The notes beneath the pieces were generated by a model. The model was not told the origin of the DNA. It was given only the letters and a program-made list of their open reading frames with translations, and made no database searches. From the IMG/VR virus record IMGVR_UViG_3300027810_000002, positions 64,001 to 128,000 of that record: 64,000 nucleotides of DNA, one strand, 5' to 3'. The position numbers were made by a program, and so were the translations under genes. Below, piece by piece: positions 28,238-48,150 of the stretch. Each line of letters opens with the position of its first letter. Position 1 is the first letter of the stretch. Source of the DNA: a virus.

Positions 28238-28831
28238 TTATTTATAGTGACCTCCACCTAACCAAAGAACAAATGATTTTCTAGTTCCTTTTGTAACTGG
28301 TTTAACAGAGTGTACCAAGTAGCTAGGAAATAAAACAACATTTCCTTTTCCTCTAGGTGCTATTAAGTTATTTTTATCTAAGGATTCTCCTCCTTGCCAA
28401 AAGCATAAGTCTCCTCCTTCATATTCTTCACTATCTGATAATTGAACGGTTATAGATACTTTTCTAATAGACATATCATGATCTCCAACATCTTGGTGCC
28501 AATCATATTTACCAAACTCAGTAGCTTCATATTCAGTATACTGTATTAATTCAGGAGCCGAATGTAAATCAAAATTCCACAGTTGGTTATTTGCTTCACT
28601 TGACATGTTTATTAATTTTTGATATAGCCATTTCCATTCTTCAGATTGTGGAATCCATTTGATATTTGATTTTCTATCTGCAGAACTGTCTCCAGAAGCT
28701 GTTACTGCTCTATTATATGGAATATTAGAAACTCCATCTTCAATCACCTTTAATTCTTGAGGTGTAAACCCCTGATCAAACCAATAGTACTGTTGAGCCT
28801 CGTTTTCTTGTGGTTTAAAAAAGTTATTCAT
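28238..28831 (-). CDS. 2OG-Fe(II) oxygenase (prolyl-hydroxylase/PKHD-like)
   Basis: WHQD, RKVSITVQLS, GGDL, FPSYLVHSVKPVTKGTRKS. Confidence 0.9.
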   Translation of the reverse strand: MNNFFKPQENEAQQYYWFDQGFTPQELKVIEDGVSNIPYNRAVTASGDSSADRKSNIKWIPQSEEWKWLYQKLINMSSEANNQLWNFDLHSAPELIQYTEYEATEFGKYDWHQDVGDHDMSIRKVSITVQLSDSEEYEGGDLCFWQGGESLDKNNLIAPRGKGNVVLFPSYLVHSVKPVTKGTRKSFVLWLGGGHYK

Positions 28832-30677
28832 TATCTGTATATGTTATATTTACTGCTCCTTCTTCTTTTCCGAATCTGGATTTTGTGTTAATAGGCCAAT
28901 CTGGATTTTCTGCATAAGCCCAATCATGTTGTCCAAGTTCTTCAAATCTTTCTTTAATTTGTTCGTTATATCTAGATGCGATAGTGCGTGTTCTTCTTTG
29001 TATATCTGCTCTAGATAGATCATGTGTATTTCTATGACCTTGATTACTATATAAAAATTGAATATAGCTTAACTTAGGTATCTTACACATAATAGTGTTT
29101 AAGAATGTTCTAATAATTAATTCGTAATCATCAACAACTGTTAAACTTCTATTGTGTCCTCCAATTGCAAAGTATGTAGATCTTCTCCACGCTCTAATGT
29201 GATTAGGAACTCCAACAATATGTCTAATTGTTTTTGGGTTAATATTTTGCTGATTAGCAGGGCTTAACATTCTACCTTGATATTCTTCTTCTCGATAGTT
29301 ACCATATCCTAATGCAAAACCAGGGCCATATTTTTGATTTTGCCATTGTTCATTTACTTCAGCAGTATCTCCATAAAAGAATCCACACTCTGGGTGTTTT
29401 TGTGCGGCGTTATGTAAATCCTGTGCACATGTTACTGCGAGTAAATCATCGTGATCTAGTTCTGCGATAATATATCCTCTAGCCATTGCATTTGCTCTCC
29501 ACTTGACCTCTCCGATAATCCCACCTGATTTTTCTCTAAAATCGTATAGCTTAACTCTAGGATCATTTGCTGCAATCTGCTCTGCAATCTTAAGTGTTTT
29601 ACCACCGTCAGTTGAATCGTTCATTAATACCCATTCCCAATTATCATAAGTTTGAGCAGCAACTGAGTTATAGGTGTTTATTAACTTTTCACCTGTGTTA
29701 TATATTGGAGTTGTAAAAGATATCATGCTATGATCGTCCATGTTTGTCGGATCTAACATTGCATTTTCAGAAACGTTATACGCAATGTCTCCTATGTTTT
29801 TAAAATCTTCGTCATTATCAATATTGATCCATTTTCTCCTAAATTGAAGAGGTAGTTTTGATAGATATTTAAAATCAGAAGAACTCTTTCCTCGAGTTAC
29901 TATTGCATCTGGTTTAAAACTGGATATTTTTTTTCTAATATCAGTATCATCCTTTGTATATTTAACCTCTAAGTTGTCATCCTCGTAATCGAGCACTTTA
30001 GTGGTTTTTATTACTGGTTCTCCAGGGCCTATGTATAAAATTCTAGGTAGTTTAGGTGTTGATACTTTTTCTAGTTGATTGTAATATGAAAGAATTTCAT
30101 TAATCCAAACAAATGTATCTGGGTGTTTCTTATATACTTCCTCGATAAAGAAACCATCAGCTGCATAATCTGCCGTGAAACCATATTTTTCAAAAAGCTC
30201 TGATCTAAATAATATTTGAGCTATGTCTGTTTTTCTGAAACCGGTAGATTCTGGAGTAGCTTCTCTATATTTTAATCCGGTAAAATCTTTACCATCTACT
30301 GACTGGCCAACCATTATAATTTTCTTTTCATAATTTATAGGTAGCGTTGCAAAGTCCTCAACTCTTTGATAAAATTCAGGGTGCATTATATTGTCGTCAT
30401 CTAGTAAATAAAACCAAGAATGTTTTAGGCTTTTTATTAAATCAGTTGTTTCAGGGTACATCATACCGCCTAACTGTCCTTTAATAAAATGAATTGTTGT
30501 GTTTGCTTGATCTAATTCAGATAAAATATTTGCATCAATATCCTTTAATGCCCTTGTATCAAATATAACATGCCAATGTATTTCTACTCCTCTTGTTTTA
30601 GAAGTGTCGAATACCGTTGGTTGTATTTTTAATAAATTAGATGTTCTAGTACATCTTGTGATTACGTTAATTTTCAT
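28824..30677 (-). CDS. Two-domain GT2 glycosyltransferase
   Basis: N-terminal GT-A (LLDDDN) and C-terminal GT2 (TPIYNT, QTYDNWEWVLMND, ELDHDD, DDYEL). Confidence 0.85.
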   Translation of the reverse strand: MKINVITRCTRTSNLLKIQPTVFDTSKTRGVEIHWHVIFDTRALKDIDANILSELDQANTTIHFIKGQLGGMMYPETTDLIKSLKHSWFYLLDDDNIMHPEFYQRVEDFATLPINYEKKIIMVGQSVDGKDFTGLKYREATPESTGFRKTDIAQILFRSELFEKYGFTADYAADGFFIEEVYKKHPDTFVWINEILSYYNQLEKVSTPKLPRILYIGPGEPVIKTTKVLDYEDDNLEVKYTKDDTDIRKKISSFKPDAIVTRGKSSSDFKYLSKLPLQFRRKWINIDNDEDFKNIGDIAYNVSENAMLDPTNMDDHSMISFTTPIYNTGEKLINTYNSVAAQTYDNWEWVLMNDSTDGGKTLKIAEQIAANDPRVKLYDFREKSGGIIGEVKWRANAMARGYIIAELDHDDLLAVTCAQDLHNAAQKHPECGFFYGDTAEVNEQWQNQKYGPGFALGYGNYREEEYQGRMLSPANQQNINPKTIRHIVGVPNHIRAWRRSTYFAIGGHNRSLTVVDDYELIIRTFLNTIMCKIPKLSYIQFLYSNQGHRNTHDLSRADIQRRTRTIASRYNEQIKERFEELGQHDWAYAENPDWPINTKSRFGKEEGAVNITYTDNE

Positions 30678-30688
30678 TTAATGTGGTT

Positions 30689-31621
30689 TTATTGTTCAAT
30701 GTCAAAGAAGAACATGTGGAAAAATCTTGCATTATCAATTGCATCTCCAAAGTATTCGGTCGCTGCGTGTAATTGTGATGAGTTAAATATTACTAGTCTA
30801 TTATATACATTTCCAATATCATCAATCTTTTCAAATTGAGTTCCATCGTAGAAATTCATTTCTTTATTAGTACCTCTGAATGTATTTAAATATTCATCTC
30901 CCATTCTAGATTCTTGACCTGGAAACGATGAAATTCCTGTAACTTTACTTCGATACATTGCAGTTCCTGTTTGTGGAGGTGCGTCTGGGGTTAAGTAAAC
31001 CATTGCAGCATACATTTGACTATCTACATGGTATACTATAGGTTGATCTGCAGTACAGAACTGAAACACTCCATTCGCATATCCACCATCATTCCAGTTT
31101 GTTATCTTTCTACCTAGTACTTCTTCAAGTTTTTCCTTAGTGCCATCTATAATATATCTAGATTGAGATCTTTGTCCTTTGTGATATTTAGAAGGTAAAA
31201 ACTCTAAATTGTTCATAGCATATTTTCTGACTAAGTCAGGATCTGCATAGAAATTATCAACAACAATAACATCTTTATCTGTTTTATTAAATCCAGATGA
31301 AGAAGCTGGCCATTTTGCTAAAGAAATAAGTTCAACTGGCGCTGCATCATTTAAACTAATCCATAGTTTTTTCGTAATATCTTCGTGTAGCATCATTATA
31401 TTAAATCCTACATTTTCCGGAATTGTTCCTTTATAAAAAGAAGAAACATCTGATCTCTTTTCCCATGAAATATTCAAGGATTTTCCATCTAATAGAACGT
31501 CAGTTACTATAGTATCTTTAGTTATTGAACCTACCCATCCTCTTACGTACCAATATCCATCGGTGGCTTTTTTAACAGAATCAATGTTTAATTTTACATT
31601 GTTTAAATTAGTTTCGTGCAT
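30689..31621 (-). CDS. Ig-like domain fused to 2OG-Fe(II) oxygenase (DUF6445-like)
   Basis: VRGWV...KRSDV...GF N-domain; VVDNFYADPD, HVD, YNRLVIF, HAA, RFFHMFF. Confidence 0.75.
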   Translation of the reverse strand: MHETNLNNVKLNIDSVKKATDGYWYVRGWVGSITKDTIVTDVLLDGKSLNISWEKRSDVSSFYKGTIPENVGFNIMMLHEDITKKLWISLNDAAPVELISLAKWPASSSGFNKTDKDVIVVDNFYADPDLVRKYAMNNLEFLPSKYHKGQRSQSRYIIDGTKEKLEEVLGRKITNWNDGGYANGVFQFCTADQPIVYHVDSQMYAAMVYLTPDAPPQTGTAMYRSKVTGISSFPGQESRMGDEYLNTFRGTNKEMNFYDGTQFEKIDDIGNVYNRLVIFNSSQLHAATEYFGDAIDNARFFHMFFFDIEQ

Positions 31622-31639
31622 TACTTTAAATTTTAATAA

Positions 31640-31665
31640 TTATACATTAAATGTTTGATTTGTTT
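31640..31665 (-). promoter_or_regulatory. Middle-type promoter AAAC-N17-TATAA
   Basis: Exact spacing shared with seven other intergenic sites. Confidence 0.7.
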
Positions 31666-31674
31666 ATATATTAC

Positions 31675-31704
31675 AAAAAAAAGGATCCCAATGGGATCCT
31701 TTTT
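31675..31704. terminator. Intrinsic terminator after collagen operon
   Basis: aaaaaggatccca-a-tgggatccttttt perfect hairpin with A/T tails. Confidence 0.85.
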
Positions 31705-31730
31705 AATAATAAGTATGTTATTATAAATTA

Positions 31731-34340
31731 TTATGTCGGAGTAATGGTACCACCGCCTTTGAGTCCTCCACCACCGCCTCCGGTTGCTGTAACTAATCCA
31801 TTAACGAATGTGACATTGTGTCCCGTACCGAAGAAAATGGTTTCACTAATAGCACTAATTGTTCCGTTAGTTCCTGGATGTCCTCCATAACCTCGTACAC
31901 CCTGAGGTCCATTTGCTCCAGTTGCTCCTGTAGGCCCTTTATAACCTTGTGGTCCATTTGATCCTGTTGGTCCTCCATTTCCGCCATTTCCTTTTGTTCC
32001 AGTATTACCTTTTGCTCCTTGGAATCCTCTTGGTCCTCCATTTCCAGTAAGTCCTTTATAACCTTGAGGTCCTACTTGTTGATATCCCTGAGATCCTTTA
32101 AGTCCAACTCCTAGACTGCTACCAGTGTTTCCTTGAACTCCTCGAACTGTTCCAGTTGGTCCTTTATAACCAGTAGGTCCTTTATTTCCTGTCCAACCTG
32201 TAATAGTAGTTCCGGTGGTTCCTCTTAATCCCTGAGGTCCTGTATATCCTTGAACTCCTTTTGGACTTGCTCCACCATTACCTTGTGCTCCTTGAGGTCC
32301 AGTATATCCTTTTGCTCCTCCGGGTTGTGATCCTTTAAGACCTTGAGGTCCCTTAGTACCAACTTTACCTTGATATCCCTTAGGCATTGCTCCTTTAGAA
32401 CCCTGAGTTCCTTGGGCTCCTTGTGGTCCTCTATGTCCAGTTAAAGAATCTCCAGTTGGGCCGGTGTTACCGGTTAGTCCTTTATAACCTGTAACTCCTT
32501 TATGTGATGTTGGACGTGCGCCTTGATTTCCTTGTGGTCCTCTTGGTCCAGTGCTTCCGGTTGGTTGTGCTCCTTTATCTCCTTGAGTACCCTGTGCTCC
32601 TTGTGGTCCTCTTGATCCTCCGGGCTGTGCTCCTTTATCTCCTTGGAATCCTCTTGGTCCTGTTAGTCCAATAAATCCTTTTGGCTGAGCTCCTTTATAT
32701 CCTTGAACTCCTTGAGCTCCTTGAACTCCTCTAAATCCTGTTGGATTTGCTCCTTGGAAACCTCTTTCTCCATTAATTCCTTTGAAACCGGTTGCTCCTG
32801 TTGGTGAAGATCCTTGAACTCCTCTTGGTCCAGTACTTCCAATAAATCCAGTATACCCCTTTGGCATTGCTCCTCTAATTCCTTGGAATCCTCTTGGTCC
32901 TGTTGGTCCTGTTGGCGAAGTTGGTCTAGCTCCTTGAAAACCTCTTGGTCCCGTATTTCCAGCATCACCGATAAGTGCGTTATATGCAGGTCCTGTTGGT
33001 CCTGTATATCCTGTTGGTCCGTTTGGTCCTATGTGTCCTTTTGGACTTGCTCCGATATTACCAATTGCTCCTTGAGATCCTTTAAGACCAGTATATCCCT
33101 TTGGACTTGGTCCTGTATATCCTGTTGGTCCGTTTACTCCTTTATCTCCTTGGAATCCTCTATTAGTACTTCCTTGAGATCCTCTAATACCCTGTACTCC
33201 TTGAAACCCTCTTGGTCCTGTTGGTGAATTACCAATAGCTCCTTGAAAACCTCTTGGTCCAGGATCTCCTGTTTGAGCAGCTGGTGTACTTCCAGTATTT
33301 CCTTGAAAACCTCTTTCTCCGTTTAATCCTTTGTCTCCAACTGGATTTGCTCCTTGTGCTCCTTTAAAACCAGGATAACCTTCAGCTCCTTGAAAACCTT
33401 TTGGACTATTTCCAACGTCTCCTTGAAAACCTCTGTCTCCGTTCAATCCTTTGTCTCCAACTGGATTTGCTCCTTGTGCTCCTTTAAAACCAGGATAACC
33501 TTCAGCTCCTTGAAAACCTTTTGGACTATTTCCAACGTCTCCTTGAAAACCTCTGTCTCCAGTTTGTCCTACTTGTGCAGTTTGAGTTGAACCCTGTGCT
33601 CCTTTTAATCCAGTTGCACCCTGTGAACCTTTATGTCCTTTTTGATTTGTACCTGCAGAACCTTGAAATCCTACATGTCCAACAAAACCAGTTGCTCCAC
33701 CAGGGTTTAACCCCGTAGTACCTTGATCTCCTTGAAAACCTCTGAAACCAGTTGCTCCTGTTAATTGATCTCCCTGAAACCCTCTTGGTCCATCAGGTCC
33801 AATATCACCAACGTAAGCTGTAATTACATTACCCTGTGATCCGGTTGAACCTTGATCTCCTTTTAGTCCTTTAAGACCATTAGTTATTTTACCTGCATCT
33901 CCAACTGTTCCTTGATTTCCTCTAAAACCTTCTGGTCCTTCTGGTGAATCTCCAACTGTTCCTTGGAATCCTCTAAAACCTTGATCAGCAGTACCTTTAT
34001 TTCCTTGAAAACCTCGATCTCCTTGAAAACCTATATTACCTTCATAACCTTGATGTCCTTGTGGACTGTCTCCTTGAAAACCTCTGAAACCAGTATCTCC
34101 AACAGGTTCTAAACCCGCAGATCCTTGAACTCCTTTATCTCCTTGAAAACCTCTATCTCCTTGAGAACCTTGAGAACCTTCAATACCTTGAAAACCTTGA
34201 TCTCCTTGAAAACCTTGAGCTCCAACAATACCTTGGTCTCCCTGGTCTCCTTTCAATTCAGGATAGTTATTAGCATCAAAGTTACCAGTATGTAGGGGAG
34301 TTTCTCCCCCTACAAGTGATCCTGTATTTAATTTTGCCAT
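31731..34340 (-). CDS. Collagen-like fibre chain A (periodically interrupted)
   Basis: ~277 GXY triplet-equivalents with a one-residue deficit every 20 aa. Confidence 0.9.
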
Positions 34341-34380
34341 GTTATTTTTATTCTTTTTTTATATATAATTAACTTATTGA

Positions 34381-37041
34381 TTATACTATGAATCCGTTTG
34401 TTACAGTAAATGGTGTACCATTGTCATCTACAAAAAATCCATTAAAACCATTACCAGTAGGTCCAGATCCAGGCCACCCAGCATAACCGATTTTACCCTG
34501 AGGTCCAAAGTTAGTTGGTCCATTACTTCCAGTTGCTCCTCTTGCTCCTGTTGATCCAGATCCTCCAGAAGATCCTTGAGCTCCTCTTGGTCCTGTTGAT
34601 CCTACTAAACCTTGATATCCTGTAGATCCTGGAGATGCAGCCTGTCCTTGAAATCCTCTTGAACCTTGAGATCCTGGTATTCCTGTATATCCTTGAAATC
34701 CTCTTGGTCCTGTTGGTGGGGTTGATCCTTTATATCCTGTTGGTCCATTACTACCTTGTGGTCCTCTTGACCCCGTTGGTCCTGTTGAACCTTTAGCTCC
34801 CTGTGGTCCTTTATAACCTTGTGCTCCTTGTGGACCCGTTGGTCCTTTATAACCTCCACCTCCGGTTGCTCCAGTTCCTCCTTGATATCCTCTTGGTCCA
34901 GTATTACCTTGTGCTCCTTGTGTACCTTGGAATCCTGTTATTCCTCTGTCTCCAGTGGCTCCTTGTGGTCCTCTGTCTCCCACTGCTGAAGTAGTTCCAG
35001 TAATACCTTTTTTACCAATAAATCCAGTATAACCTTTTGCTCCAGTTGCTCCCTGTGATCCAGTTGATCCCTGTGCTCCTTGATTTCCTTTAGCTCCAGT
35101 ATTTCCCTGTACTCCTGTTAATCCAGTTGCTCCTTTAAATCCAGTATAACCAGTTACTCCCTGTGCTCCTTGATTTCCTTGTGATCCGTTAACTCCTGTT
35201 TTACCAATAAATCCAGTATAACCTGTTGCTCCGGTAGATCCTTGTGAACCATTAACTCCAGGATAACCAGTTGGTCCCGTTGGTCCTTGATTTCCAACGG
35301 CTCCAGTTCCTCCAGTTACTCCTTTAGCTCCAACAAGTCCAGTATAACCTTTTGCTCCGGTTGCGCCCTGTGCTCCTGTAAATCCAGTAGGTCCTGTTGA
35401 ACCTTTAACTCCTTGTGCTCCTTGTGCTCCTTTTACATTAGTAAATCCTTGAGGTCCCGTTGGTCCTTGAGGACCTGTGTTACCAACATTAGATGTTGTT
35501 CCTGTTAATCCTTTAAAACCAGTAGCTCCTTTTGCTCCTTGTACTCCTTGTACTCCTGTTAATCCTTTATAACCGGTAGCTCCTTTTGCTCCTTGTGCTC
35601 CTTGTGCTCCTTTAGGTCTTTGAGATCCCTGAGGTCCCTGAGCTCCTTTTGCTCCTTGAGAACCTTTATTACCAGTAGCTCCTTTAGCTCCTATTGCTCC
35701 TTGGAATCCTCTTTCACCAAGTTCTCCAGTGTTTCCTATAGTACCCTGAGGTCCAGTTGATCCCTGTGCTCCTTGATTTCCTTTTAATCCTTCAAATCCT
35801 GTTGAACCAACAACTCCTCTATAACCAGTATCTCCTTTGAAACCGGTAAATCCTGTAGCTCCTTTAGCACCTTGTGCTCCAGTAACTCCTTGGAATCCCT
35901 TTGGTCCCGTTGGTCCTTGTGGTCCTCTTCCACCAGATCCACCAGTTAATCCTTGATAACCAGTTGCTCCAGTATTACCTTTAGTTCCTTGATTTCCTTT
36001 AGCTCCAGTATCTCCTTTAAGGCCGTTAATTCCTTTAATACCAACATATCCAGTAGAACCTTTAGCTCCTGTTGCTCCTTGAAAACCTGTTGCTCCAGTA
36101 TTACCCTTAGTTCCTTGATTTCCTTTAGCCCCAGTATCTCCTTTAAGTCCGTTAATTCCTTTAATACCAACATATCCTGTAGAACCTTTAGCTCCTGTTA
36201 CTCCTTGAAAACCTGTTGCTCCAGTAGATCCTTGTGTTCCTTGAGATCCAGTACTTCCTTTATCTCCTGAAAGACCTTGAAATCCTCTTTCACCAGGATC
36301 TCCTGGTAAAGAATCCGAAGCAGTTGCTCCTTTAAATCCTTTTTGTCCTGTTGAACCTTTAGATCCCTGAGATCCTTTAACTCCATTAGTTCCAGGTAAT
36401 CCTTCAAAACCAGTAGATCCTTTAGATCCCTGTGCTCCATTAACTCCGGTAAATCCTTTTAAACCGGTTGAACCTTGCGATCCTTTATTTCCTTTAACTG
36501 ATGTTGCTCCTTTAGCTCCTTGGAATCCTCTTTCTCCAGTATCTCCTTGTGTACCTTGTGTACCTTTAATACCGAGAGAACCTTGACTTCCTTGAAAACC
36601 TCTTTCTCCGTTAATTCCTTTTACACCCTGTGCTCCAGTAGCTCCTTGGAATCCTTGAAGTCCAATAGAACCTTGATCGCCGACTTGTCCTTGATACCCA
36701 TTAGAACCATTAGGACCTAATATACCTGTTATTCCTTTTTCTCCTCTAATTCCAGTTGCACCGGTAAAACCTTGAAGACCATTTGATCCTTGATTACCTT
36801 TACTACCAGTAGATCCTTGATCACCTTGAATACCTTGATAACCATCAGTTCCAACGAAACCTTGATTACCTGTATCACCTTGATGACCGACACTACCGTC
36901 GGATCCAACAGATCCTTGGGATCCTTGAGATCCCAATTCACCGTTTGGTCCAATAAGCTGAGGAAAATTCGTGCTATTAAGGTTACCACTGTGTAATACA
37001 AGATTACTGTCTAACGTAGTACCTAAGATAAATTTTGCCAT
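34381..37041 (-). CDS. Collagen-like fibre chain B
   Basis: ~277 triplets between a 30-aa N-cap and short C-cap. Confidence 0.9.
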   Translation of the reverse strand: MAKFILGTTLDSNLVLHSGNLNSTNFPQLIGPNGELGSQGSQGSVGSDGSVGHQGDTGNQGFVGTDGYQGIQGDQGSTGSKGNQGSNGLQGFTGATGIRGEKGITGILGPNGSNGYQGQVGDQGSIGLQGFQGATGAQGVKGINGERGFQGSQGSLGIKGTQGTQGDTGERGFQGAKGATSVKGNKGSQGSTGLKGFTGVNGAQGSKGSTGFEGLPGTNGVKGSQGSKGSTGQKGFKGATASDSLPGDPGERGFQGLSGDKGSTGSQGTQGSTGATGFQGVTGAKGSTGYVGIKGINGLKGDTGAKGNQGTKGNTGATGFQGATGAKGSTGYVGIKGINGLKGDTGAKGNQGTKGNTGATGYQGLTGGSGGRGPQGPTGPKGFQGVTGAQGAKGATGFTGFKGDTGYRGVVGSTGFEGLKGNQGAQGSTGPQGTIGNTGELGERGFQGAIGAKGATGNKGSQGAKGAQGPQGSQRPKGAQGAQGAKGATGYKGLTGVQGVQGAKGATGFKGLTGTTSNVGNTGPQGPTGPQGFTNVKGAQGAQGVKGSTGPTGFTGAQGATGAKGYTGLVGAKGVTGGTGAVGNQGPTGPTGYPGVNGSQGSTGATGYTGFIGKTGVNGSQGNQGAQGVTGYTGFKGATGLTGVQGNTGAKGNQGAQGSTGSQGATGAKGYTGFIGKKGITGTTSAVGDRGPQGATGDRGITGFQGTQGAQGNTGPRGYQGGTGATGGGGYKGPTGPQGAQGYKGPQGAKGSTGPTGSRGPQGSNGPTGYKGSTPPTGPRGFQGYTGIPGSQGSRGFQGQAASPGSTGYQGLVGSTGPRGAQGSSGGSGSTGARGATGSNGPTNFGPQGKIGYAGWPGSGPTGNGFNGFFVDDNGTPFTVTNGFIV

Positions 37042-37076
37042 GTTATTATTTTTATATTTTTATTTGTTTTATATTG

Positions 37077-39950
37077 TTATCCGATATTTACACCGTTTAC
37101 AATAGTACGTGCTCCTCCTGCTGCTAAAACAGTTCCGTTATATCCAGAATTTGCAGCAGAAATACCTTGAATTCCTTGTGGTCCTCTTACTCCGGTACCA
37201 GAACCACCTGTGGCTCCTTGATAACCTTGAGGTCCTCGAGATGCAGGTGATCCTGATGCTCCAGTATATCCTTTAGGTCCTTGTGCTCCGTTTGGTCCTT
37301 TTAATCCTGTAGATCCTTGTGATCCTGATATTCCTTTATATCCTTGAACTCCTCTTGGTCCTGTACTACCATTAGGTCCTATATAACCTTGTACTCCACG
37401 TGCTCCTACTGATCCAGTGGTACCCTTTACTCCTTGAGGTCCTGTATATCCTTGAGCTCCTTGTGCTCCTTGGTTTCCTTGAGCTCCTCTTACAGTACCT
37501 GCAAGTCCAATAAAACCTTTAAGTCCGGTTGAACCTTGTGGTCCTCTTCCTCCCTGTGGTCCTATTGGTCCAGTATATCCTTTTGGTCCTGTTGCTCCTT
37601 GGAATCCTCTGTGACCTGGTGCACCACCATAACCTTGTGCTCCAGTTGGTCCTGTATAACCCTGTACTCCTTGAGTTCCTCTTGCAGCCGCAGTTCCCTG
37701 TGGTCCAGTTAGTCCTTTATTACCAGTAGCTCCCTGTGGTCCTCTTGGTCCAGTAGATCCTTTAAAACCTGTATCTCCTTTTGCTCCTTGGAATCCTCTA
37801 ATTCCTTGTGGTCCAAGATCTCCAGTAGGTCCAGTTGCTCCTTTAGGTCCGATATATCCGATATATCCTTTTGGTCCAGTTGCTCCTTGAGGTCCTTTAG
37901 TTCCTTTTGCTCCAGTTGCTCCTTGATTACCCTTTGGTCCAGTTATTCCCTGAACTCCTTTTGCTCCTTGAAAACCTTTTGTTCCTTGGGCTCCTTGAGG
38001 TCCAGTATTTCCTTGAGGTCCTCTAATAGTTCCAGTACTTCCAATTACTCCTTGAAAACCTTTGTTTCCAGTAGCTCCGGTTGCTCCTTGATTACCTTTA
38101 ATTCCTTGGAATCCTCTGTCACCAGTTGCTGCAGTAGATCCTTTAAGACCTTGGAATCCGTTTGTTCCTTGGAATCCTTGGAATCCTCTTGGTGCAGCAG
38201 TTCCCTGTGCTCCGGTATTTCCTTGAAATCCAATCTTTCCAGTTGGTCCTAAATTACCAGTTGCTCCGGTATTTCCTTGAACTCCAATAAATCCTTTATC
38301 TCCTTTAGTTGCACTTGGGGCAATATATCCAGTGTCTCCTTGTGTTCCTCTGTCTCCAGTTGCTCCTTGATTACCTTGTGATCCTGTTACTCCAGTATAT
38401 CCTTTTGCACCAGTAGTACCTTTAGATCCTTGGAATCCTCTTGGTCCACTAGATCCTTGATGTCCTCTTTCACCAGCATCTCCTTGAACTCCTTTTGAAC
38501 CTTGTGGTCCAACTGCTCCAACAGATCCCTGTGCTCCTGTTACTCCAGTGTTTCCTTGAACTCCAATTGCTCCTGTTGATCCTTTATCTCCAATTGCTCC
38601 TTGAGGTCCTGTATAACCTTTTGCTCCTTGTGCTCCAAGAGGTCCTGTTAAACCTTTAGCTCCTTGATTTCCTTTGAAACCTTGATCTCCTTTAAGACCA
38701 ACATTTCCAATAATACCTTGATTTCCTTGGAATCCTCTTGAACCAGTATTACCCTGTGCTCCAGTAGATCCTTTTAAACCTTTAGCTCCTTGGTTTCCTT
38801 TGAAACCTTGATCTCCTTTAAGACCAACATTTCCAATAACACCTTGGTTTCCTTGAAAACCTCTTGAACCAGTATTACCCTGTGCTCCAGTAGATCCTTT
38901 TAAACCTTTAGCTCCTTTTGATCCTTTAAAACCTCTTTCACCAATGATACCATCGGCTCCAGTAGATCCTTGATAACCAGTTGCTCCAGTAGATCCTTGT
39001 GTTCCTATTACTTTATTAATACCAGCGTCTCCTTGAGTTCCTTGATTTCCTTGAAAACCTCTGTCTCCTACGGGTCCGTTAATACCTGTTGTTCCTTTAA
39101 TTCCTTTGTCTCCTTGGAATCCTCTGGCTCCATTTGAACCATTATTTCCTTTTGCTCCTTGAGGTCCTGTAAATCCAACGTCTCCTTGTGCTCCTCTGTT
39201 TCCATCAAGTCCTTTATAACCTGTTGCTCCAGTTGAACCTTTAAAACCTTGATCTCCGATTACCCCATCAGAACCTTGATCACCTTTATAACCGGTAACC
39301 CCTTGATTTCCCTGAACTCCAATAGGTCCAGTAACTCCTTTGTTTCCGACAGATCCTTGGAATCCTCTGGCACCATCTGCACCTGTTAAACCCTTAGTAC
39401 CTTGAGTACCTTTAGTTCCTTGATTTCCTTGGAATCCTCTTTCACCTTGATTTCCAACAATACCTTGAGTTCCTTGGAATCCTCTTTCACCTTTAGCTCC
39501 AGTAGTACCTGAAATACCAATATCTCCTACTAATCCTTTACTACCACGTGATCCTTCACTACCAGTATCTCCTACTAATCCAGTATTTCCAAGAGAACCT
39601 TTATCTCCACGAAAACCTTCATCACCCGTATTTCCTTTTGCTCCTTTTAAAGAAAGAAAATTACCCGGAATAAAATTACCAGGTCTTATCACTAGATTAC
39701 CACCGATTGTTGAATCAGCTTTAAAGTTTCCACCACCATCAAAAGTACCACCCGCTATAATTGCGGAATCAGTACTCCTAATAGTTAACACATTCCCCGC
39801 AGGGAATGTGTTTAACTCTTCTAGGTAAGACGGCGTATAGACGATAGCTGAACCTTGGTCGATACCTGCTCTGTTCGAAGTTTCATCGATCTGAGCCTGG
39901 AATTCTCCGGTAGATTGTACTAGTTTTATCGCTATTTTATTAAATGCCAT
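37077..39950 (-). CDS. Collagen-like fibre chain C
   Basis: ~276 triplets after a 102-aa N-domain. Confidence 0.9.
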   Translation of the reverse strand: MAFNKIAIKLVQSTGEFQAQIDETSNRAGIDQGSAIVYTPSYLEELNTFPAGNVLTIRSTDSAIIAGGTFDGGGNFKADSTIGGNLVIRPGNFIPGNFLSLKGAKGNTGDEGFRGDKGSLGNTGLVGDTGSEGSRGSKGLVGDIGISGTTGAKGERGFQGTQGIVGNQGERGFQGNQGTKGTQGTKGLTGADGARGFQGSVGNKGVTGPIGVQGNQGVTGYKGDQGSDGVIGDQGFKGSTGATGYKGLDGNRGAQGDVGFTGPQGAKGNNGSNGARGFQGDKGIKGTTGINGPVGDRGFQGNQGTQGDAGINKVIGTQGSTGATGYQGSTGADGIIGERGFKGSKGAKGLKGSTGAQGNTGSRGFQGNQGVIGNVGLKGDQGFKGNQGAKGLKGSTGAQGNTGSRGFQGNQGIIGNVGLKGDQGFKGNQGAKGLTGPLGAQGAKGYTGPQGAIGDKGSTGAIGVQGNTGVTGAQGSVGAVGPQGSKGVQGDAGERGHQGSSGPRGFQGSKGTTGAKGYTGVTGSQGNQGATGDRGTQGDTGYIAPSATKGDKGFIGVQGNTGATGNLGPTGKIGFQGNTGAQGTAAPRGFQGFQGTNGFQGLKGSTAATGDRGFQGIKGNQGATGATGNKGFQGVIGSTGTIRGPQGNTGPQGAQGTKGFQGAKGVQGITGPKGNQGATGAKGTKGPQGATGPKGYIGYIGPKGATGPTGDLGPQGIRGFQGAKGDTGFKGSTGPRGPQGATGNKGLTGPQGTAAARGTQGVQGYTGPTGAQGYGGAPGHRGFQGATGPKGYTGPIGPQGGRGPQGSTGLKGFIGLAGTVRGAQGNQGAQGAQGYTGPQGVKGTTGSVGARGVQGYIGPNGSTGPRGVQGYKGISGSQGSTGLKGPNGAQGPKGYTGASGSPASRGPQGYQGATGGSGTGVRGPQGIQGISAANSGYNGTVLAAGGARTIVNGVNIG

Positions 39951-39998
39951 ATCTTTGTTTTTATTATTTTTTAGTTACTCCTGTTTTATTTATTCCAA

Positions 39999-42782
39999 TT
40001 AATCGAATGAGAATGTAATGTCTCCATTTGCGTCTCTTTCAATTCTTGCTGTTGGGTTACCATTAACATCGTTAAAATAAATAGCTTTATCATTGGCGAT
40101 TGTTATTGAATCTCCATCAAATGCACCAGTTTCTCCTTGATCTCCTTTAGTACCTTGAACTCCTTGAATACCATCGTCTCCTTTGAAACCTTGATCTCCT
40201 TTAGCTCCAGTATCTCCTTTGAAACCTTGATCTCCTTTAATACCTTGAATACCTTGAATACCATCGTCTCCTTTGAATCCTTGATCTCCTTTAATACCTT
40301 GAATACCATCGTCTCCTTTAATACCTTGAATACCATCGTCTCCTTTAGTACCCTGAACTCCGATAACTCCTTGTTCTCCAGTATCTCCTTTGAATCCTTG
40401 ATCTCCTTTAGCTCCAGTATCTCCTTTGAAACCTTGATCTCCTTTAATACCTTGAATACCATCGTCTCCTTTAGTACCTTGAACTCCGATAACTCCTTGT
40501 TCTCCAGTATCTCCTTTGAATCCTTGATCTCCTTTTAAACCAGTATCTCCTTTGAAACCTTGATCTCCTTTTAAACCTTGAATACCATTGTCTCCTTTGA
40601 ATCCTTGATCTCCTTTTAAACCAGTATCTCCTTTAGCTCCAGTATCTCCTTTGAAACCTTGATCTCCTTTAATACCTTGAATACCATCGTCTCCTTTAGT
40701 ACCTTGAACTCCTTGAATACCATCGTCTCCTTTAGTACCTTGAACTCCTTGAATACCATCGTCTCCTTTAGTACCCTGAACTCCGATAACTCCTTGTTCT
40801 CCTTGAATACCTTGAATACCATCGTCTCCTTTTAAACCTGTATCTCCTTGAATACCCTGTTCTCCTTGAATACCCTGTTCTCCTGTATCTCCTTTAAGAC
40901 CAGTATCTCCTTGAATACCTTGAATACCATCGTCTCCTTTAATACCTTGAATACCATCGTCTCCTTTAGTACCTTGAACTCCGATAACTCCTTGTTCCCC
41001 TTGGAAACCTTGAATACCTTGCTCTCCAGTATCTCCTTTGAAACCTTGATCTCCTTTTAAACCTTGAATACCATCGTCTCCTTTAGTACCTTGAACTCCT
41101 TGAATACCATCGTCTCCTTTAGTACCTTGAACTCCTTGAATACCTTGTTCTCCTGTATCTCCTTTAAGACCTGTATCTCCTTTGAATCCTTGATCTCCTT
41201 TAAGACCAGTTTCTCCTTGAATACCTTGAATACCATCGTCTCCTTTAGTACCTTGAACTCCTATAACTCCTTGTTCTCCTTGAATACCATCGTCTCCTTT
41301 AGTACCCTGAACTCCGATAACTCCTTGTTCTCCTTGAATACCTTGAATACCATCGTCTCCTTTAGTACCCTGAACTCCGATAACTCCTTGTTCTCCTTGA
41401 ATACCTTGAATACCATCGTCTCCTTTGAATCCTTGATCTCCTTTAGTACCTACAGTACCTTGAACTCCGATAACTCCTTGTTCTCCAGTATCTCCTTTTA
41501 AACCAGTATCTCCTTGAATACCTTGAATACCATCGTCTCCTTTGAAACCTTGATCTCCTTGAATACCTTGTTCTCCTTGAATACCTTGAATACCATCGTC
41601 TCCTTTAGTACCTACAGTACCTTGAACTCCGATAACTCCTTGTTCTCCTGTATCTCCTTTAAGACCAGTTTCTCCTTGAATACCTTGAATACCATTGTCT
41701 CCTTGGAAACCTTGTTCTCCTTGAATACCTTGTTCTCCTTGAATACCTTGAATACCATTGTCTCCTTGGAAACCTTGTTCTCCTTGAATACCTTGAATAC
41801 CATCGTCTCCTTTAAGACCAGTTTCTCCTTGAATACCATTGTCTCCTTGGAAACCTTGTTCTCCTTGAATACCTTGTTCTCCTTGAATACCTTGAATACC
41901 ATCGTCTCCTTTAGTACCTTGAACTCCGATAACTCCTTGTTCCCCTTGGAAACCTTGAATACCTTGTTCTCCTGTATCTCCTTTAAGACCAGTTTCTCCT
42001 TGAATACCCTGTTCTCCAGTATCTCCTTTGAATCCTTGATCTCCTTGAATACCTTGTTCTCCTGTATCTCCTTTAAGACCAGTTTCTCCTTGAATACCCT
42101 GTTCTCCAGTATCTCCTTTGAATCCTTGATCTCCTTGAATACCTTGAATACCATCGTCTCCTTTGAAACCTTGATCTCCTTGAATACCTTGAATACCATC
42201 GTCTCCTTTGAAACCCTGATCTCCTGTATCTCCTTTAAGACCAGTTTCTCCTTGAATACCTTGAATACCATTGTCTCCTTGGAAACCTTGTTCTCCTTGA
42301 ATACCTTGAATACCCTGTTCTCCTGTATCTCCTTTAAGACCAGTTTCTCCTTGAATACCTTGAATACCATTGTCTCCTTGGAAACCCTGTTCTCCTTGAA
42401 TACCTTGAATACCCTGTTCTCCTTGATCTCCTTTAAGACCATCTACTCCTTGATCTCCTTTAAGACCATCTACTCCTTGATCTCCTTGTTCCCCTTGGAA
42501 ACCTTGAATACCTTGTTCTCCTTGATCTCCTTTAAGACCAGTTTCTCCTTGAATACCAGTGTCTCCTTGGAAACCCTGTTCTCCTTGAACACCTTGAATA
42601 CCTTGTTCACCGGTATCTCCTTTAAAACCTTGATCTCCTTGAAGACCTTGATCTCCTTGAAAGCCTTGAACCCCATCAATACCTTGATCTCCTTGAAGAC
42701 CTTGATCTCCTTGCGCTCCTTGATATCCGGATCCTTGATCTCCCTGGGGACCTGCGGTAGAAATATATGCTGAATATGCCAT
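39999..42782 (-). CDS. Acidic, Pro-poor collagen-like protein (chain D)
   Basis: ~290 nearly uninterrupted triplets (GIQ, GEQ, GDQ, GDD, GFK, GLK); short C-terminal beta domain. Confidence 0.9.
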   Translation of the reverse strand: MAYSAYISTAGPQGDQGSGYQGAQGDQGLQGDQGIDGVQGFQGDQGLQGDQGFKGDTGEQGIQGVQGEQGFQGDTGIQGETGLKGDQGEQGIQGFQGEQGDQGVDGLKGDQGVDGLKGDQGEQGIQGIQGEQGFQGDNGIQGIQGETGLKGDTGEQGIQGIQGEQGFQGDNGIQGIQGETGLKGDTGDQGFKGDDGIQGIQGDQGFKGDDGIQGIQGDQGFKGDTGEQGIQGETGLKGDTGEQGIQGDQGFKGDTGEQGIQGETGLKGDTGEQGIQGFQGEQGVIGVQGTKGDDGIQGIQGEQGIQGEQGFQGDNGIQGETGLKGDDGIQGIQGEQGFQGDNGIQGIQGEQGIQGEQGFQGDNGIQGIQGETGLKGDTGEQGVIGVQGTVGTKGDDGIQGIQGEQGIQGDQGFKGDDGIQGIQGDTGLKGDTGEQGVIGVQGTVGTKGDQGFKGDDGIQGIQGEQGVIGVQGTKGDDGIQGIQGEQGVIGVQGTKGDDGIQGEQGVIGVQGTKGDDGIQGIQGETGLKGDQGFKGDTGLKGDTGEQGIQGVQGTKGDDGIQGVQGTKGDDGIQGLKGDQGFKGDTGEQGIQGFQGEQGVIGVQGTKGDDGIQGIKGDDGIQGIQGDTGLKGDTGEQGIQGEQGIQGDTGLKGDDGIQGIQGEQGVIGVQGTKGDDGIQGVQGTKGDDGIQGVQGTKGDDGIQGIKGDQGFKGDTGAKGDTGLKGDQGFKGDNGIQGLKGDQGFKGDTGLKGDQGFKGDTGEQGVIGVQGTKGDDGIQGIKGDQGFKGDTGAKGDQGFKGDTGEQGVIGVQGTKGDDGIQGIKGDDGIQGIKGDQGFKGDDGIQGIQGIKGDQGFKGDTGAKGDQGFKGDDGIQGVQGTKGDQGETGAFDGDSITIANDKAIYFNDVNGNPTARIERDANGDITFSFD
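40130..42750 (-). repeat. Mosaic of 9-bp codon-triplet repeats in chain D
   Basis: Recurrent ccttgaata / ccatcgtct / cctttaaga / ccttgatct units. Confidence 0.85.
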
Positions 42783-43706: not shown

Positions 43707-44297
43707 ATGATAAATAGTATAATGAATAGTATTACTAAGAAGATAGTTAGAGATTACATATATTTTAGAGAAACATTAGATGACGTAAAAACTATTTCTA
43801 GTGATGCGGAAGGTATGTTTAGGGACGCGATGCACGATCATAATGAGGTTGCACTAACAGCTCTCACTCCACCAGAAGGAGCACCTCCTATTAAAAAAAT
43901 TGATGAAGAACTTGTTGTAAAATTTGAAGACAAGCTCTTTAAAAAGCTTTTTAGAAAGATAGCAGTATTATGCCATCCGGATAAATTAGATGATTCTTAC
44001 TCTGAAAGAGAAGCTACATTTTTAAAAAAATGCTATGAAGATCTCAATACTTCTAACCAAACATACGATTGGGGATTGTTGTTGAAAGTTGCTATGGAAC
44101 TGGATGTTGAAATTCCGGAATTAAGCGATGAGCAATTTATTAACATTAATAATAATATAGAATCTATTAAAAATACTATTAACCAGTTTGAAGGATCTAT
44201 GGCTTATAAATGGTATACCCTCTCCGACACTGATGCCAAGAAAGGGTATTTAGAAAGCTGTGCTTCTATATTTATGGATAGTTTAAAGAATCGTTAA
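43707..44297 (+). CDS. Atypical J-domain protein
   Basis: Internal KKLFRKIAVLCHPDK (HPD) motif; only plus-strand gene in the left 57 kb. Confidence 0.7.
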   Translation: MINSIMNSITKKIVRDYIYFRETLDDVKTISSDAEGMFRDAMHDHNEVALTALTPPEGAPPIKKIDEELVVKFEDKLFKKLFRKIAVLCHPDKLDDSYSEREATFLKKCYEDLNTSNQTYDWGLLLKVAMELDVEIPELSDEQFININNNIESIKNTINQFEGSMAYKWYTLSDTDAKKGYLESCASIFMDSLKNR

Positions 44298-45076
44298 ACG
44301 TCCCACTTATTAGTTAGATGACATCTTACATAAACAGGTGCCTGATACGCAATACCATTAGGATATTCTGATTGCAATCTCGTATAAAAGTCTACATCTT
44401 CTGACGTGTCTTTAGAGATAATATCTCTCCATTTTGTTGATAAATTAGATTTGTGCATAAATAACCAAGGTGCCATTATCTGTCTGTCTGGTTTTACTTG
44501 AATTGGCTTCCATGCCTCTGGTAAACCTTCTATCTGAATTGCCGGTGTTTCTGAAGGATCTAATATAGCATTCCCATTAGCTAGCTCAGTTGAAACAGAC
44601 TCATGATCAAACCATGAGGTATTTATCCACCAATCTTTTTCTGGGTTTGCGTTAAAATATAAAAGAGATGTCATCGTTGCGTTTGGCATTAAAAAATCAT
44701 CTGAATCCATATACATTACAACGTGGCCGGTTGCTGCAGCTGCACCTAGTCTTCTACCGAATCCTCTATAATATCTTCCTTTATCTTCTATTTCCTCGTA
44801 CATTTGAGGAGTGTCTGTTCTATCGAAATATATTAGTTTTATATTTGGTGTGTTCTTGTGTGATCTATTAAATAGTTGATGTGTTTTATTACACCCATCT
44901 GCTACTATAATAAGTTCGCAGTTTTTATATGTTTGGTTTTGAAAACTTTCGACTGCCCTGTGAAATTTACCAATAGGATCTTTTCTTGAATTTTCGTAGT
45001 TTTCTAGGTTTACTTGCATCACTATAGATATTTTTATCTTGTTTAGTGATTCGAATATTTCTTTAAAATTGCTCAT
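44294..45076 (-). CDS. GT2 glycosyltransferase
   Basis: SFQNQTYKNCELIIVADG, YMDSDD, SEDVDF. Confidence 0.85.
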   Translation of the reverse strand: MSNFKEIFESLNKIKISIVMQVNLENYENSRKDPIGKFHRAVESFQNQTYKNCELIIVADGCNKTHQLFNRSHKNTPNIKLIYFDRTDTPQMYEEIEDKGRYYRGFGRRLGAAAATGHVVMYMDSDDFLMPNATMTSLLYFNANPEKDWWINTSWFDHESVSTELANGNAILDPSETPAIQIEGLPEAWKPIQVKPDRQIMAPWLFMHKSNLSTKWRDIISKDTSEDVDFYTRLQSEYPNGIAYQAPVYVRCHLTNKWDV

Positions 45077-46272
45077 TATTTATATAGGTTTGTTTTCCAA
45101 TTATATTTATAAGATAATTCATGTGTTCCTGGTTTAAATAAATTATCTATTAACTTTTTATATGTATCTACCAGATCCGCGTTAGTTGACAAATAACGGT
45201 CTAATACTTTTTTACTGTTTTCATTATATTGATCTAGGTTATTGTCATGTTCCTCAAGTGCCAATTTTAATTGATCGGCTCCTTGTGATATATTAAATCC
45301 TTCATAATAATATCCTGCATCCTTTATCATGTCTGCATTGTGCACTATAGGGTACCCAAAATAGAGTGCGTCTAAGTATGCATAGTTTAATGGGTTTTCC
45401 CATTGGTGTGATAAGACTATGTCGGTTTCACTTGCTAAGAACGTCGATACTGGGTACCTTCCAACATACTTTATTTTGTTATCTGGAGAGTTAACTATGT
45501 CGAAATTCTTAATCATCGATAAATAGTATTTATTCTTTAGTAATTTCTTGCCAGATCCTATGTATATTTGTTTAAACGCGTTTTTACCGGATTCTCTAAA
45601 AACTCTTTCAGCGATCATGATAGTCATCAATGAATATTTAACAACATTTATATTTGGTTCCATTACAGATAACTTTTTATCTTTAGCATCCTTTGGAATA
45701 TATCCCGGAATCAATTTGCCGGCACGTTTTAGTAATTTATTAAATTCATCAAGCGGCTCAGGGTCCCATATGAAAGGAACTGTTTTTATCTGAGAATCCT
45801 CTTGTCTGTATATTGTTTTAAAGTATTCTAGGTTTTGATATTCCTGTTGAGGTATTACCCATGTTTCGTCGTGGCCTCCATCCCATGAAGGAACCATTGA
45901 CTCGGTAATTGTATCAAACATTACTCGTTCCATGTCAACTACATAACTATTTCCACATTGGTATTTTACTACTTTTAAATTTGGATTTTTGCTTTTCATT
46001 AAAGATATCCTACTTGTAGGCAAAGAAGCACCTACCATAAACATTAAGTCTATCTCATTCTCCATCGCTGTAAATTTTGCGATTTTATATTTATTATAAT
46101 CCCAGTTTACTTTAGTTAAATCAGAAACATTCTTAGCTGCGTCTAAAATATAAACATCAAGTCCTTCTATTTGGTTTAACATTTTAGATAGGTTCAGCGC
46201 ATTTAATTTAATGCCGTTGATCCACATGCTTTCATATTCCTTTGTTAGGGATATTATAATTCCTACTTTCAT
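45076..46272 (-). CDS. DUF2827-like putative glycosyltransferase
   Basis: SMWINGIKLN, VMEPNINVVK, SHQWENPLNYAYLDALYFGYPIVHNA. Confidence 0.7.
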   Translation of the reverse strand: MKVGIIISLTKEYESMWINGIKLNALNLSKMLNQIEGLDVYILDAAKNVSDLTKVNWDYNKYKIAKFTAMENEIDLMFMVGASLPTSRISLMKSKNPNLKVVKYQCGNSYVVDMERVMFDTITESMVPSWDGGHDETWVIPQQEYQNLEYFKTIYRQEDSQIKTVPFIWDPEPLDEFNKLLKRAGKLIPGYIPKDAKDKKLSVMEPNINVVKYSLMTIMIAERVFRESGKNAFKQIYIGSGKKLLKNKYYLSMIKNFDIVNSPDNKIKYVGRYPVSTFLASETDIVLSHQWENPLNYAYLDALYFGYPIVHNADMIKDAGYYYEGFNISQGADQLKLALEEHDNNLDQYNENSKKVLDRYLSTNADLVDTYKKLIDNLFKPGTHELSYKYNWKTNLYK

Positions 46273-46377: not shown

Positions 46378-48150
46378 TTAGTGTTGGTAAACGAATACTA
46401 CTTCGTCTTGTGCATCAATTACATAACCTGGGTTAGATAAAGTAACCTGTGGTCCTGCAACTGTTTGAACAAATACTCTGTGTCCGTTAACAAATACATC
46501 TACTAAAGATGATTGGTCTTCTTGTACAGGGTGTGCTAAACTGTAAACTAATCCAGCTCCAGCGAATGTTTCAGTAGCCATTTGATCATCTTCGATGATA
46601 GCAGCTTCTAATACATCTAATCTACCGTCTTGAACTGATTGCTCAGCGTCAGTAGAAGCGATTTCAGCAGCTAGTGCAGAATCAATTCTTGTAACGTCAG
46701 CGTTAGTAGCAACGATTTCAGCGTTTAACTGAGATTGTAAATCAGAATCAGCTTGATCTCTTGCTAATTCCTCAGCAGCCATTTCAGCGTCATGCTTAGC
46801 TTCTAATGAAGTAAAGTCTGCGTTAGTAGCAGCGATTTCATCAACTAAACCAGCTTCAACCTCTGATACTCTCGTATCGATTGAAGTAAATTCAGCAGTG
46901 ATAGCTCCTTCTAAAGAAATAACATCAGAATTAGTAGCAGCGATTTCAGCAGATAAAGCAGTATCGATTCTAGTAACATCAGAGTTAGTAGCAGCGATTT
47001 CAGCAGATAAAGCAGAATTGATACTAGTGATATCAGAATCAGTAGCAGCGATTTCAGCGTTTAAGTTAGAAATTACTACAGCTAAAGCGTTATCATTTAC
47101 AGTATCAACAGCGTTGATTAAAGAAACAACCTCAACGAATGTATCTTTGTCAGCGTCAGCAGCTAATAAGATTGCGTCGATTCTTGCGTTTTCTGCATCA
47201 ATGTTAGCTTGTAACGTTGAGTCAGCAGCAGCATAAGCAGCTTCAACTCTTACGAAGTCAGAATTAGTAGATGCAATTTCTGCAGCTAATTCTCCTTCAA
47301 CTCTTGTAAAGTCAGAGTTAGTAGAAGCGATTTCAGCAGCTAGTGCAGAATCAATTCTTGTAACGTCTCCATTAGTAGCTAAAACTTCAGCGTCTAATTC
47401 AACTCTTAAGTCAGATACTTCATCAACTAAATCTCCAGATACTTCTCCTAATCTTAAGTCAATAGAAGTAACATCAGAATTAGTAGATGCGATTTCATTG
47501 TCTAAAGCAGATTGTAATGCAGTGTCAGCTTGCTCTCTTGCTAATTCCTCAGCAGACATTTCAGCGTCATGCTTAGCCTCTAAAGAAGTGAAGTCAGAGT
47601 TAGTAGCTGCAATCTCTGCAGATAATTCTCCTTCAACTCTTGTAAAGTCAGCGTTTGTTGCAGCGATCTCTTGAGAGATTGCTAAGTTAATGCTTGTGAA
47701 ATCTGCGTTAGTTGCAGAGATCTCATTGTTTAAGTCAACGATTACCGCTCCTAAAGCGTTATCATTTTCTAAATCAACAGCATTGATTAAAGAAACAACC
47801 TCAACGAATGTATCTTTATCAGCATCAGCTGCTAATAAGATTGCGTCGATTCTTGCATTTTCTGCATCAATGTTAGATTGTAACGTTGATTCAGCACCTT
47901 CAGCTCTTGATTGTTCAGTAGATAAATCTCCTTCTAATCTAGAAACGTCTGTGTTTGTAGCTGATACTTCACCAGCTAAAGCAACTTCTAAAGAGTCAAT
48001 TGATGCGTCTAATTCCGTTTGAGCTGCAACTATCTCATCACCAACGTACTTTGCGATGTCAGATGTGTTTGCAATCTCAAAAGAAGATGTAGCTGCCCAG
48101 TTTACTGTGCTTAAGAAATCCTTAATTTGTTTTGAACGAATTTGTGCCAT
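46378..48150 (-). CDS. Acidic coiled-coil fibre protein
   Basis: 18-residue AEIAATNSDxTRxDxAL repeats; duplicated ADADKDTFVEVVSLINAVD; C-terminal VFVNG domain. Confidence 0.75.
   Translation of the reverse strand: MAQIRSKQIKDFLSTVNWAATSSFEIANTSDIAKYVGDEIVAAQTELDASIDSLEVALAGEVSATNTDVSRLEGDLSTEQSRAEGAESTLQSNIDAENARIDAILLAADADKDTFVEVVSLINAVDLENDNALGAVIVDLNNEISATNADFTSINLAISQEIAATNADFTRVEGELSAEIAATNSDFTSLEAKHDAEMSAEELAREQADTALQSALDNEIASTNSDVTSIDLRLGEVSGDLVDEVSDLRVELDAEVLATNGDVTRIDSALAAEIASTNSDFTRVEGELAAEIASTNSDFVRVEAAYAAADSTLQANIDAENARIDAILLAADADKDTFVEVVSLINAVDTVNDNALAVVISNLNAEIAATDSDITSINSALSAEIAATNSDVTRIDTALSAEIAATNSDVISLEGAITAEFTSIDTRVSEVEAGLVDEIAATNADFTSLEAKHDAEMAAEELARDQADSDLQSQLNAEIVATNADVTRIDSALAAEIASTDAEQSVQDGRLDVLEAAIIEDDQMATETFAGAGLVYSLAHPVQEDQSSLVDVFVNGHRVFVQTVAGPQVTLSNPGYVIDAQDEVVFVYQH

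Follow-up and report, generated by a model that had tools for sequence, protein, structure and literature searches.

Introduction

The bend of the complement C1q stalk has been ascribed to Gly-X-Y discontinuities in only some of its chains (PMC11463431; PMC9898670). Single interruptions bend the collagen of both C1q and mannan-binding lectin (MBL), and in solution models of the GQG kink of MBL a one-residue deletion bends the helix by 11-85 degrees (PMC9898670). Prokaryotic and phage collagens are held to be homotrimers, and the known kinks are single or irregular. The three phage collagen chains described here, A, B and C (together ABC), would differ on both counts.

Results

Four consecutive collagen genes

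The window analysed comprises 64,000 nucleotides (positions 64,001 to 128,000 of the IMG/VR record IMGVR_UViG_3300027810_000002) of a 175-kb linear virus record, whose source we call a giant marine bacteriophage. The record contains T4-like baseplate wedge and head-tail adaptor genes, the nearest relatives of its baseplate wedge being uncultured huge phages and Lak phages, and the window sequence occurs in marine and seawater metagenomes. Gene starts carry A-rich leaders with no Shine-Dalgarno motif and a ribosomal protein S1-like gene is encoded by the phage (window 5873-7141); together with the Lak-like relatives, these features suggest a host among the Bacteroidota.

Four collagen genes follow one another on the minus strand in the order D-C-B-A. 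Chain D (39999..42782) is an acidic, uninterrupted collagen that lies outside the proposed trimer and served as a control. Chain C (37077..39950, 957 aa) has a 102-aa N-terminal region followed by collagen at aa 103-929 (276 triplets), chain B (34381..37041, 886 aa) is collagenous at aa 31-858 (277 triplets, with a hidden 7-triplet pattern), and chain A (31731..34340, 869 aa), the one with periodic deletions, at aa 31-826 (277 triplet equivalents). A terminator-like hairpin, identified by consensus match only, directly 3' of chain A (31678..31704, minus strand) ends the run. The collagen repeat (PF01391) is the sole Pfam match in all four chains; glycine recurs at every third residue over long runs, as in that family, and the frame of A resets each 20 residues. 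Pfam searches revealed no C-terminal Peptidase_S74 domain in A, B, C or D and no C1q or lectin globular domain at the C-termini of A, B and C, whose caps measure 28-43 aa, and PHROG matches of these collagens to tail fibres stem from the collagen repeat alone. The 30-aa leader of A (34251..34340, minus strand) has paralogous counterparts in B (aa 1-30, 36952-37041) and in C (aa 73-102, 39645-39734). It is probably a register-setting or anchoring cap; no relative of solved structure was found for it. Marine metatranscriptome contigs cover A, B and C (window 31600-40100, run X8), contigs alone not separating RNA from DNA. Elsewhere, a 590-aa acidic, coiled-coil-like repeat protein is encoded upstream of the collagens (window 46378-48150; 453-674 aa in relatives), and a further collagen-rich ORF of 2046 aa outside the window (G000:C1:136935-143075) has a 311-triplet stretch without interruption.

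Chain A is interrupted every 20 residues

From 33953 down to 32154 on the minus strand, chain A is built of 30 consecutive 20-residue (60-bp) units, each consisting of five triplets followed by G-x-x-P-x or an 8-residue equivalent. The first-pass annotation had described this unit and a strict 20-residue period from aa 130 to aa 710, and our frame analysis reproduces both: the breaks fall at aa 130, 150 and so on to 710 (nt 33953 to 32213), always exactly 20 residues apart (n=30), five residues long in 24 cases and eight in the other six. The one pair of 17/23 spacings, at aa 607, results from viewing an eight-residue break from its opposite end. When 34 deletions were placed at random in 100,000 trials, the longest run of equal spacing was 7. 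Proline occupies residue 4 in 20 of the 30 units, which share 17% identity at non-Gly positions and 52% in DNA; being so little alike, they point to a conserved period, not to a recent repeat. Three earlier one-residue deletions of A (33981..34115, minus strand; triplets 16, 21 and 30) are retained in most homologues and form, with triplet 35, a 5+9 = 14 pattern.

Over 31803-33354 and 33531-34215, contigs of three marine DNA studies differ from the window at 0-2 positions, so that the period is no assembly artefact; these contigs stop at duplicated blocks, and the agreement does not extend to block copy number. The contig joints listed for this region had short sides, derived from other collagens, and were discarded.

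Related loci keep matched lengths and matched duplications

Searches of a protein database with these chains returned generic collagens only, and there was no match in the bacterial or archaeal genomes searched and no specific match among cultured phages. Related loci were drawn from viral and metagenome contigs; they are related to one another and are not independent samples. The A/B/C triplet counts lie within 3 of each other in nine of 11 loci (161-279 triplets): 277/277/276 in the window and L002, 263/263/262 in L003, 258/261/260 in L043, 241/243/241 in L026, 220/222/220 in L022, 190/191/190 in L030, 185/184/185 in L019 and 162/161/161 in L023. The exceptions are L021 (259/260/267), where C is 7-8 triplets long, and L039 (262/279/278), where A is 16-17 short. 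In L039 the register is kept at the N-terminus and is regained further downstream once A is shifted by 14 triplets, as would fit either the collapse of a 120-bp repeat or a true mismatch. The counts agree only when each A unit is taken as seven triplets; if a unit is instead read as six triplets and a bulge, A comes out 19-34 triplets short. The lengths of A, B and C correlate with one another at 0.99 or above, and those of B and D at -0.35, values that overstate independence because of the kinship of the loci.

Tandem duplications are matched as well. Two units of A (33321..33560, minus strand) form a 120-nt duplication with 119/120 identical positions, and B (35974..36225) and C (38664..38915), on the same strand, each carry a 126-nt duplication (121/126) at the triplet position of that in A. 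Such sets at matching triplet positions measure 120/126/126 nt in the window, 180/189/189 in L022 and L026, and 60/63/63 in L030, all being multiples of 60/63/63 nt. Moreover, globular inserts of about 155-185 aa in B or C (L019:4861-7203, L030:16616-18964, L030:13923-16586, L043:4139-7384) leave the triplet count unaffected; three of them look related and move between the two chains, and they are possibly side-mounted binding domains. In two loci chain A ends in an intein-like (Hint) domain (L019:9016-9507, L021:12422-12961), with the intein C-terminal motif above the cut-off and weak PDB matches; the window's chain A has no Hint domain. A truncated gene (L048:696-1200), which follows a non-collagen gene, shares the leader and has 46 triplets with no break; it may represent a further variant.

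Each of the ten A-type genes has its deletions at triplet 0 mod 7. In L023, 43/42/41 residues are found per 14 triplets, one chain's insertion lying beside another's deletion, and the periodically shortened chain is B-like, as judged by leader similarity. All periodic designs found thus use 7 or 14 triplets; homologues, for which the first-pass annotation had staked its proposal on break periods related to 7, have 7 in every case and 14 in the variant. These data bear on whether tandem amplification of a 60/63-bp unit could have left the period behind as a neutral relic. Recent whole-unit duplications do exist, yet spacing is still exact between units as divergent as those of A, the phase is the same in every A-type gene, and L023 places its 14-triplet period in a different chain, which makes a neutral origin highly improbable.

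The three chains prefer one register

Register was scored by axial salt bridges according to the rule i to i+2, i+2 and i+5 (PMC11923368), comparing 27 registers and compositions with shifted chains as control. For the window, 48 pairs are counted with B leading, C middle and A trailing, whereas shifted chains give 14.8 +/- 3.2 and the homotrimers AAA, BBB and CCC give 14, 7 and 18. In each of the nine 20-mer loci this B-C-A register scores highest of the 27 (z 5.6-11.2), L023 yields the same order with chains assigned by leader similarity, and the salt-bridge pattern fits the canonical collagen stagger. A complex prediction for the first ~190 collagen-proximal residues of B, C and A scored 0.25 (mark 0.32) and was counted neither way.

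Chains B and C respond to the breaks in A

As the first-pass annotation had noted, B and C keep 21 residues per unit over the periodic span of A, their glycine frame being intact apart from two one-residue insertions in C (GTIR, GTVR). Glycine is lost without insertion or deletion at 11 places in B and C within this span, every one beside a break in A. Across lineages, with sites merged by hand, there are 13 distinct Gly-loss sites in B and C, each of which falls at phase 1-2; for independent sites the probability of this by chance is about 1e-7. The test omits chain C of L021 and L043 beyond triplet 115, where counting is ambiguous owing to two 11-residue segments and a number of the sites that follow are off phase. 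These losses would mark the core levels adjoining the vacancy of A in the B-C-A stagger. The last periodic break of A (aa 710, 32213) coincides with a C insertion (aa 818, 37499), producing a 5/6/7 joint of the kind repeated in L023.

A period is hidden even in the uninterrupted triplets of B and C, where a scan of periods 4-14 gave peaks only at 7 and 14 (z at 7, 5.8 for B and 4.5 for C). In B, an aromatic residue at X occurs in 1 of 49 triplets at phases 1-2; in C, Lys, Arg or Gln at Y occurs in 1 of 29 phase-0 triplets, compared with more than half elsewhere. For B, L021 and L022 replicate the hidden period; for C, where the samples are shorter, it is weak. The same scan of D revealed no 7-triplet pattern; D shows a period-9 signal (z 3.6).

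Matched counts, matched duplications, the hidden period of B and C and the single preferred register all bear out the heterotrimer that the first-pass annotation had assumed, and we consider it nearly certain, as far as sequence can tell, that A, B and C form one heterotrimer. Three separate homotrimers would leave each of these observations unexplained. In such an arrangement A3, deleted in all strands, would be overwound and straight, making about one turn in every 20 residues if the background twist is 10/3. This reading agrees with the description of prokaryotic collagen-like proteins as homotrimers (PMC8968730), with the mismatched lengths of L039 and with our toy model (see below), where removing one residue from each of the three strands leaves the rod almost straight and overwinds it by about +80 degrees per joint; the reading is nevertheless very improbable. 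That ABC is a heterotrimer with periodic asymmetric joints is held with high confidence.

Composition of the joints and the neighbouring enzymes

Joint positions are rich in Thr, Ser and Pro, Thr is frequent at the Y position, and modifying-enzyme genes adjoin the collagen genes (window 28238-31621 and 44294-46272), encoding a 2OG-Fe(II) oxygenase, a GT2, DUF6445, a second GT2 and DUF2827. It is possible that these oxygenase and glycosyltransferase genes serve fibre modification, and modification of Thr by the neighbouring enzymes could change the twist of the helix. The joints might be read as periodic docking or modification sites, about 5.9 nm apart, for a partner lattice, chain D, neighbouring trimers or the oxygenases and glycosyltransferases, with bending incidental. 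The composition of the joints, the flanking enzymes and the charge of the chains (A, B and C basic; D strongly acidic, with 2 Pro) would suit such a role. Against it, joint sequence varies widely in A and only joint length is fixed, D is without the 7-triplet pattern, and the close relatives L031-L033 keep D and the flanking enzymes, still linked, in the absence of ABC. Across relatives D ranges from 44 to 337 triplets and its C-terminal domains differ. We regard docking or modification as an improbable explanation of the period.

Does a joint bend the helix?

The effect of a joint was explored with a toy model, in which one residue was removed from one strand of an ideal triple helix and the backbone minimised with Ala side chains, harmonic restraints and no solvent. 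Low-energy solutions, with allowed torsions, are kinked by 21-31 degrees to the short strand. The modelled kink lies within 12 degrees of the direction of A whatever the starting twist, adds -9 to +4 degrees of twist per joint, and would cost 2.4 model kcal/mol per joint to straighten at the stiffness of a 77 nm persistence length. For the L023-type joint (deletion plus insertion, every 14 triplets) the model bends by about 40 degrees toward the short chain, 3 of 20 runs being low-energy. On this modelling, the kinks are probably directional, toward A.

Overall shape depends on twist

The shape of the whole fibre would depend on the twist per triplet, which sets how closely the twist per unit approaches 360 degrees. 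The toy model forms a left-handed coil with a radius of 10-13 nm when the twist is 51.4 degrees per triplet (7/2), and a corkscrew whose radius is 3 nm at 45 degrees and 1.4 nm at 40 degrees. At 36 degrees (10/3) the fibre is practically straight, with a radius of 0.6-0.7 nm, since successive kinks then turn by about 100 degrees from unit to unit and offset one another. A 7/2 twist is characteristic of collagen rich in imino acids, and helices poor in them come closer to 10/3 (PMC3933592). Proline is present in only 11-24% of triplets, and in 23/210 triplets of B and 27/210 of C (11-13%). When composition outside the joints was scanned in the B-C-A register, none of the twists tested revealed a consistent stripe marking an inner or an outer face, and the scattered nominal p-values disagree with one another.

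The same heterotrimer might be effectively straight, with kinks that rotate 80-110 degrees per unit and cancel, or with joints that act as soft hinges; the deletion would be a register lock against homotrimers and misalignment in a segmented, flexible whisker. The low proline content favours a 10/3-like twist, at 36-40 degrees the model is nearly straight, the constraints on B and C are confined to the joint with no face stripe, and one-chain interruptions of collagen IV have been treated as flexible sites or register shifts (10.1101/2020.09.27.315929). A register lock, however, needs no strict period, and salt bridges already set the register. Proline in the joint would suggest stiffness instead of a hinge, and a 10/3 helix offers no reason for 7 and 14, which a 7/2 helix explains, though shared history could do so too. 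We treat a straight ABC rod as a genuine possibility, if a somewhat unlikely one.

For the curl, the first-pass annotation had argued that a 7/2 helix completes one turn in 7 triplets (~6 nm), which is correct, and that one deletion per turn would form a curvature code. The bending toward the shortened chain is reproduced by the toy model; the absence of a compositional face and the cancelling of kinks at a 10/3-like twist speak against the rest. Chances of a visible programmed curl appear evenly balanced, and the ring or spring originally pictured is rather unlikely. Similarly doubtful is that one unit equals one superhelical turn, which would place 30 kinks on nearly one face in a self-coiled spring or open ring of radius 10-17 nm. 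Wrapping of a host flagellum would fit a coil of 10-13 nm but was set aside, since the likely host belongs to the Bacteroidota, which are mostly non-flagellated.

Discussion

The explanation we favour, to which we give about an even chance, is an ABC trimer with preset kinks that add up to a programmed curl or corkscrew. A, B and C would wind into a single staggered helix of about 240 nm (277 triplets x 0.86 nm), with B leading, C in the middle and A trailing. At each seventh triplet A would be without its core glycine, five residues of A spanning six of B and C, and the facing positions of B and C would be tuned to the joint. Each joint would be a preset kink with A on the inside, and kinks every ~5.9 nm would produce a programmed, probably left-handed, curl or corkscrew. 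The period, the co-variation and the register are read from the sequences; the size and direction of the kink come from the toy model. The product is most likely a virion fibre for host capture.

A collagen made naturally of A, B and C, its register readable and one of its chains bearing 30 evenly spaced deletions, would show three genes encoding the shape of a fibre, and would reveal the effect of a one-chain deletion on the triple helix. If one unit is one turn, large-scale curvature would be written as the spacing of deletions and could be retuned by moving them between chains, as L023 appears to have done by shifting its deletions to another chain. The radius of the fibre would, moreover, report the twist of a proline-poor collagen. 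Such a system would provide a rule by which curved collagen nanofibres could be designed, and a candidate explanation of the curly fibres on giant phages.

Curled fibres have been described for Bacillus phage 0305phi8-36, the capsid of phage 7-7-1, the tail coil of phage G and the head of PTm1, likewise on large phages, and can wrap host appendages. The publications examined draw no link from them to collagen, PTm1 gave no PF01391 match, and neither PTm1 nor LR756500 has collagen; the likeness is one of function only. The collagen-like proteins EPclA/B of E. coli O157 prophages and the collagen tail fibres of S-CRM01 are closer in kind, being products of Gly-X-Y fibre genes of tailed phages that depend little on Hyp and are charge-stabilised, but fibres of this type from phages and bacteria have been described as homotrimeric (PMC8968730) and carry no more than one interruption. 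No long run of evenly spaced deletions was found among 120 database collagens or the S-CRM01 genes, and the literature searched contained no report of periodic one-chain deletions in collagen, an absence that is not proof. Collagen IV shares one-chain interruptions, including the one-residue deletions called 'stammers', which, in contrast to those of A, are irregular and produce no global curvature (10.1101/2020.09.27.315929). In MBL, too, a one-residue deletion bends the helix, there at a single site of a homotrimer. In the complement C1q stalk, likewise, three different chains share one helix and a chain-specific interruption bends it. C1q has one kink, in a short stalk with a globular head; the phage rod of ~240 nm has 30 even joints and no C1q domain. 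ABC is thus not a member of the C1q family, though its joints would work as the bend of the C1q stalk does.
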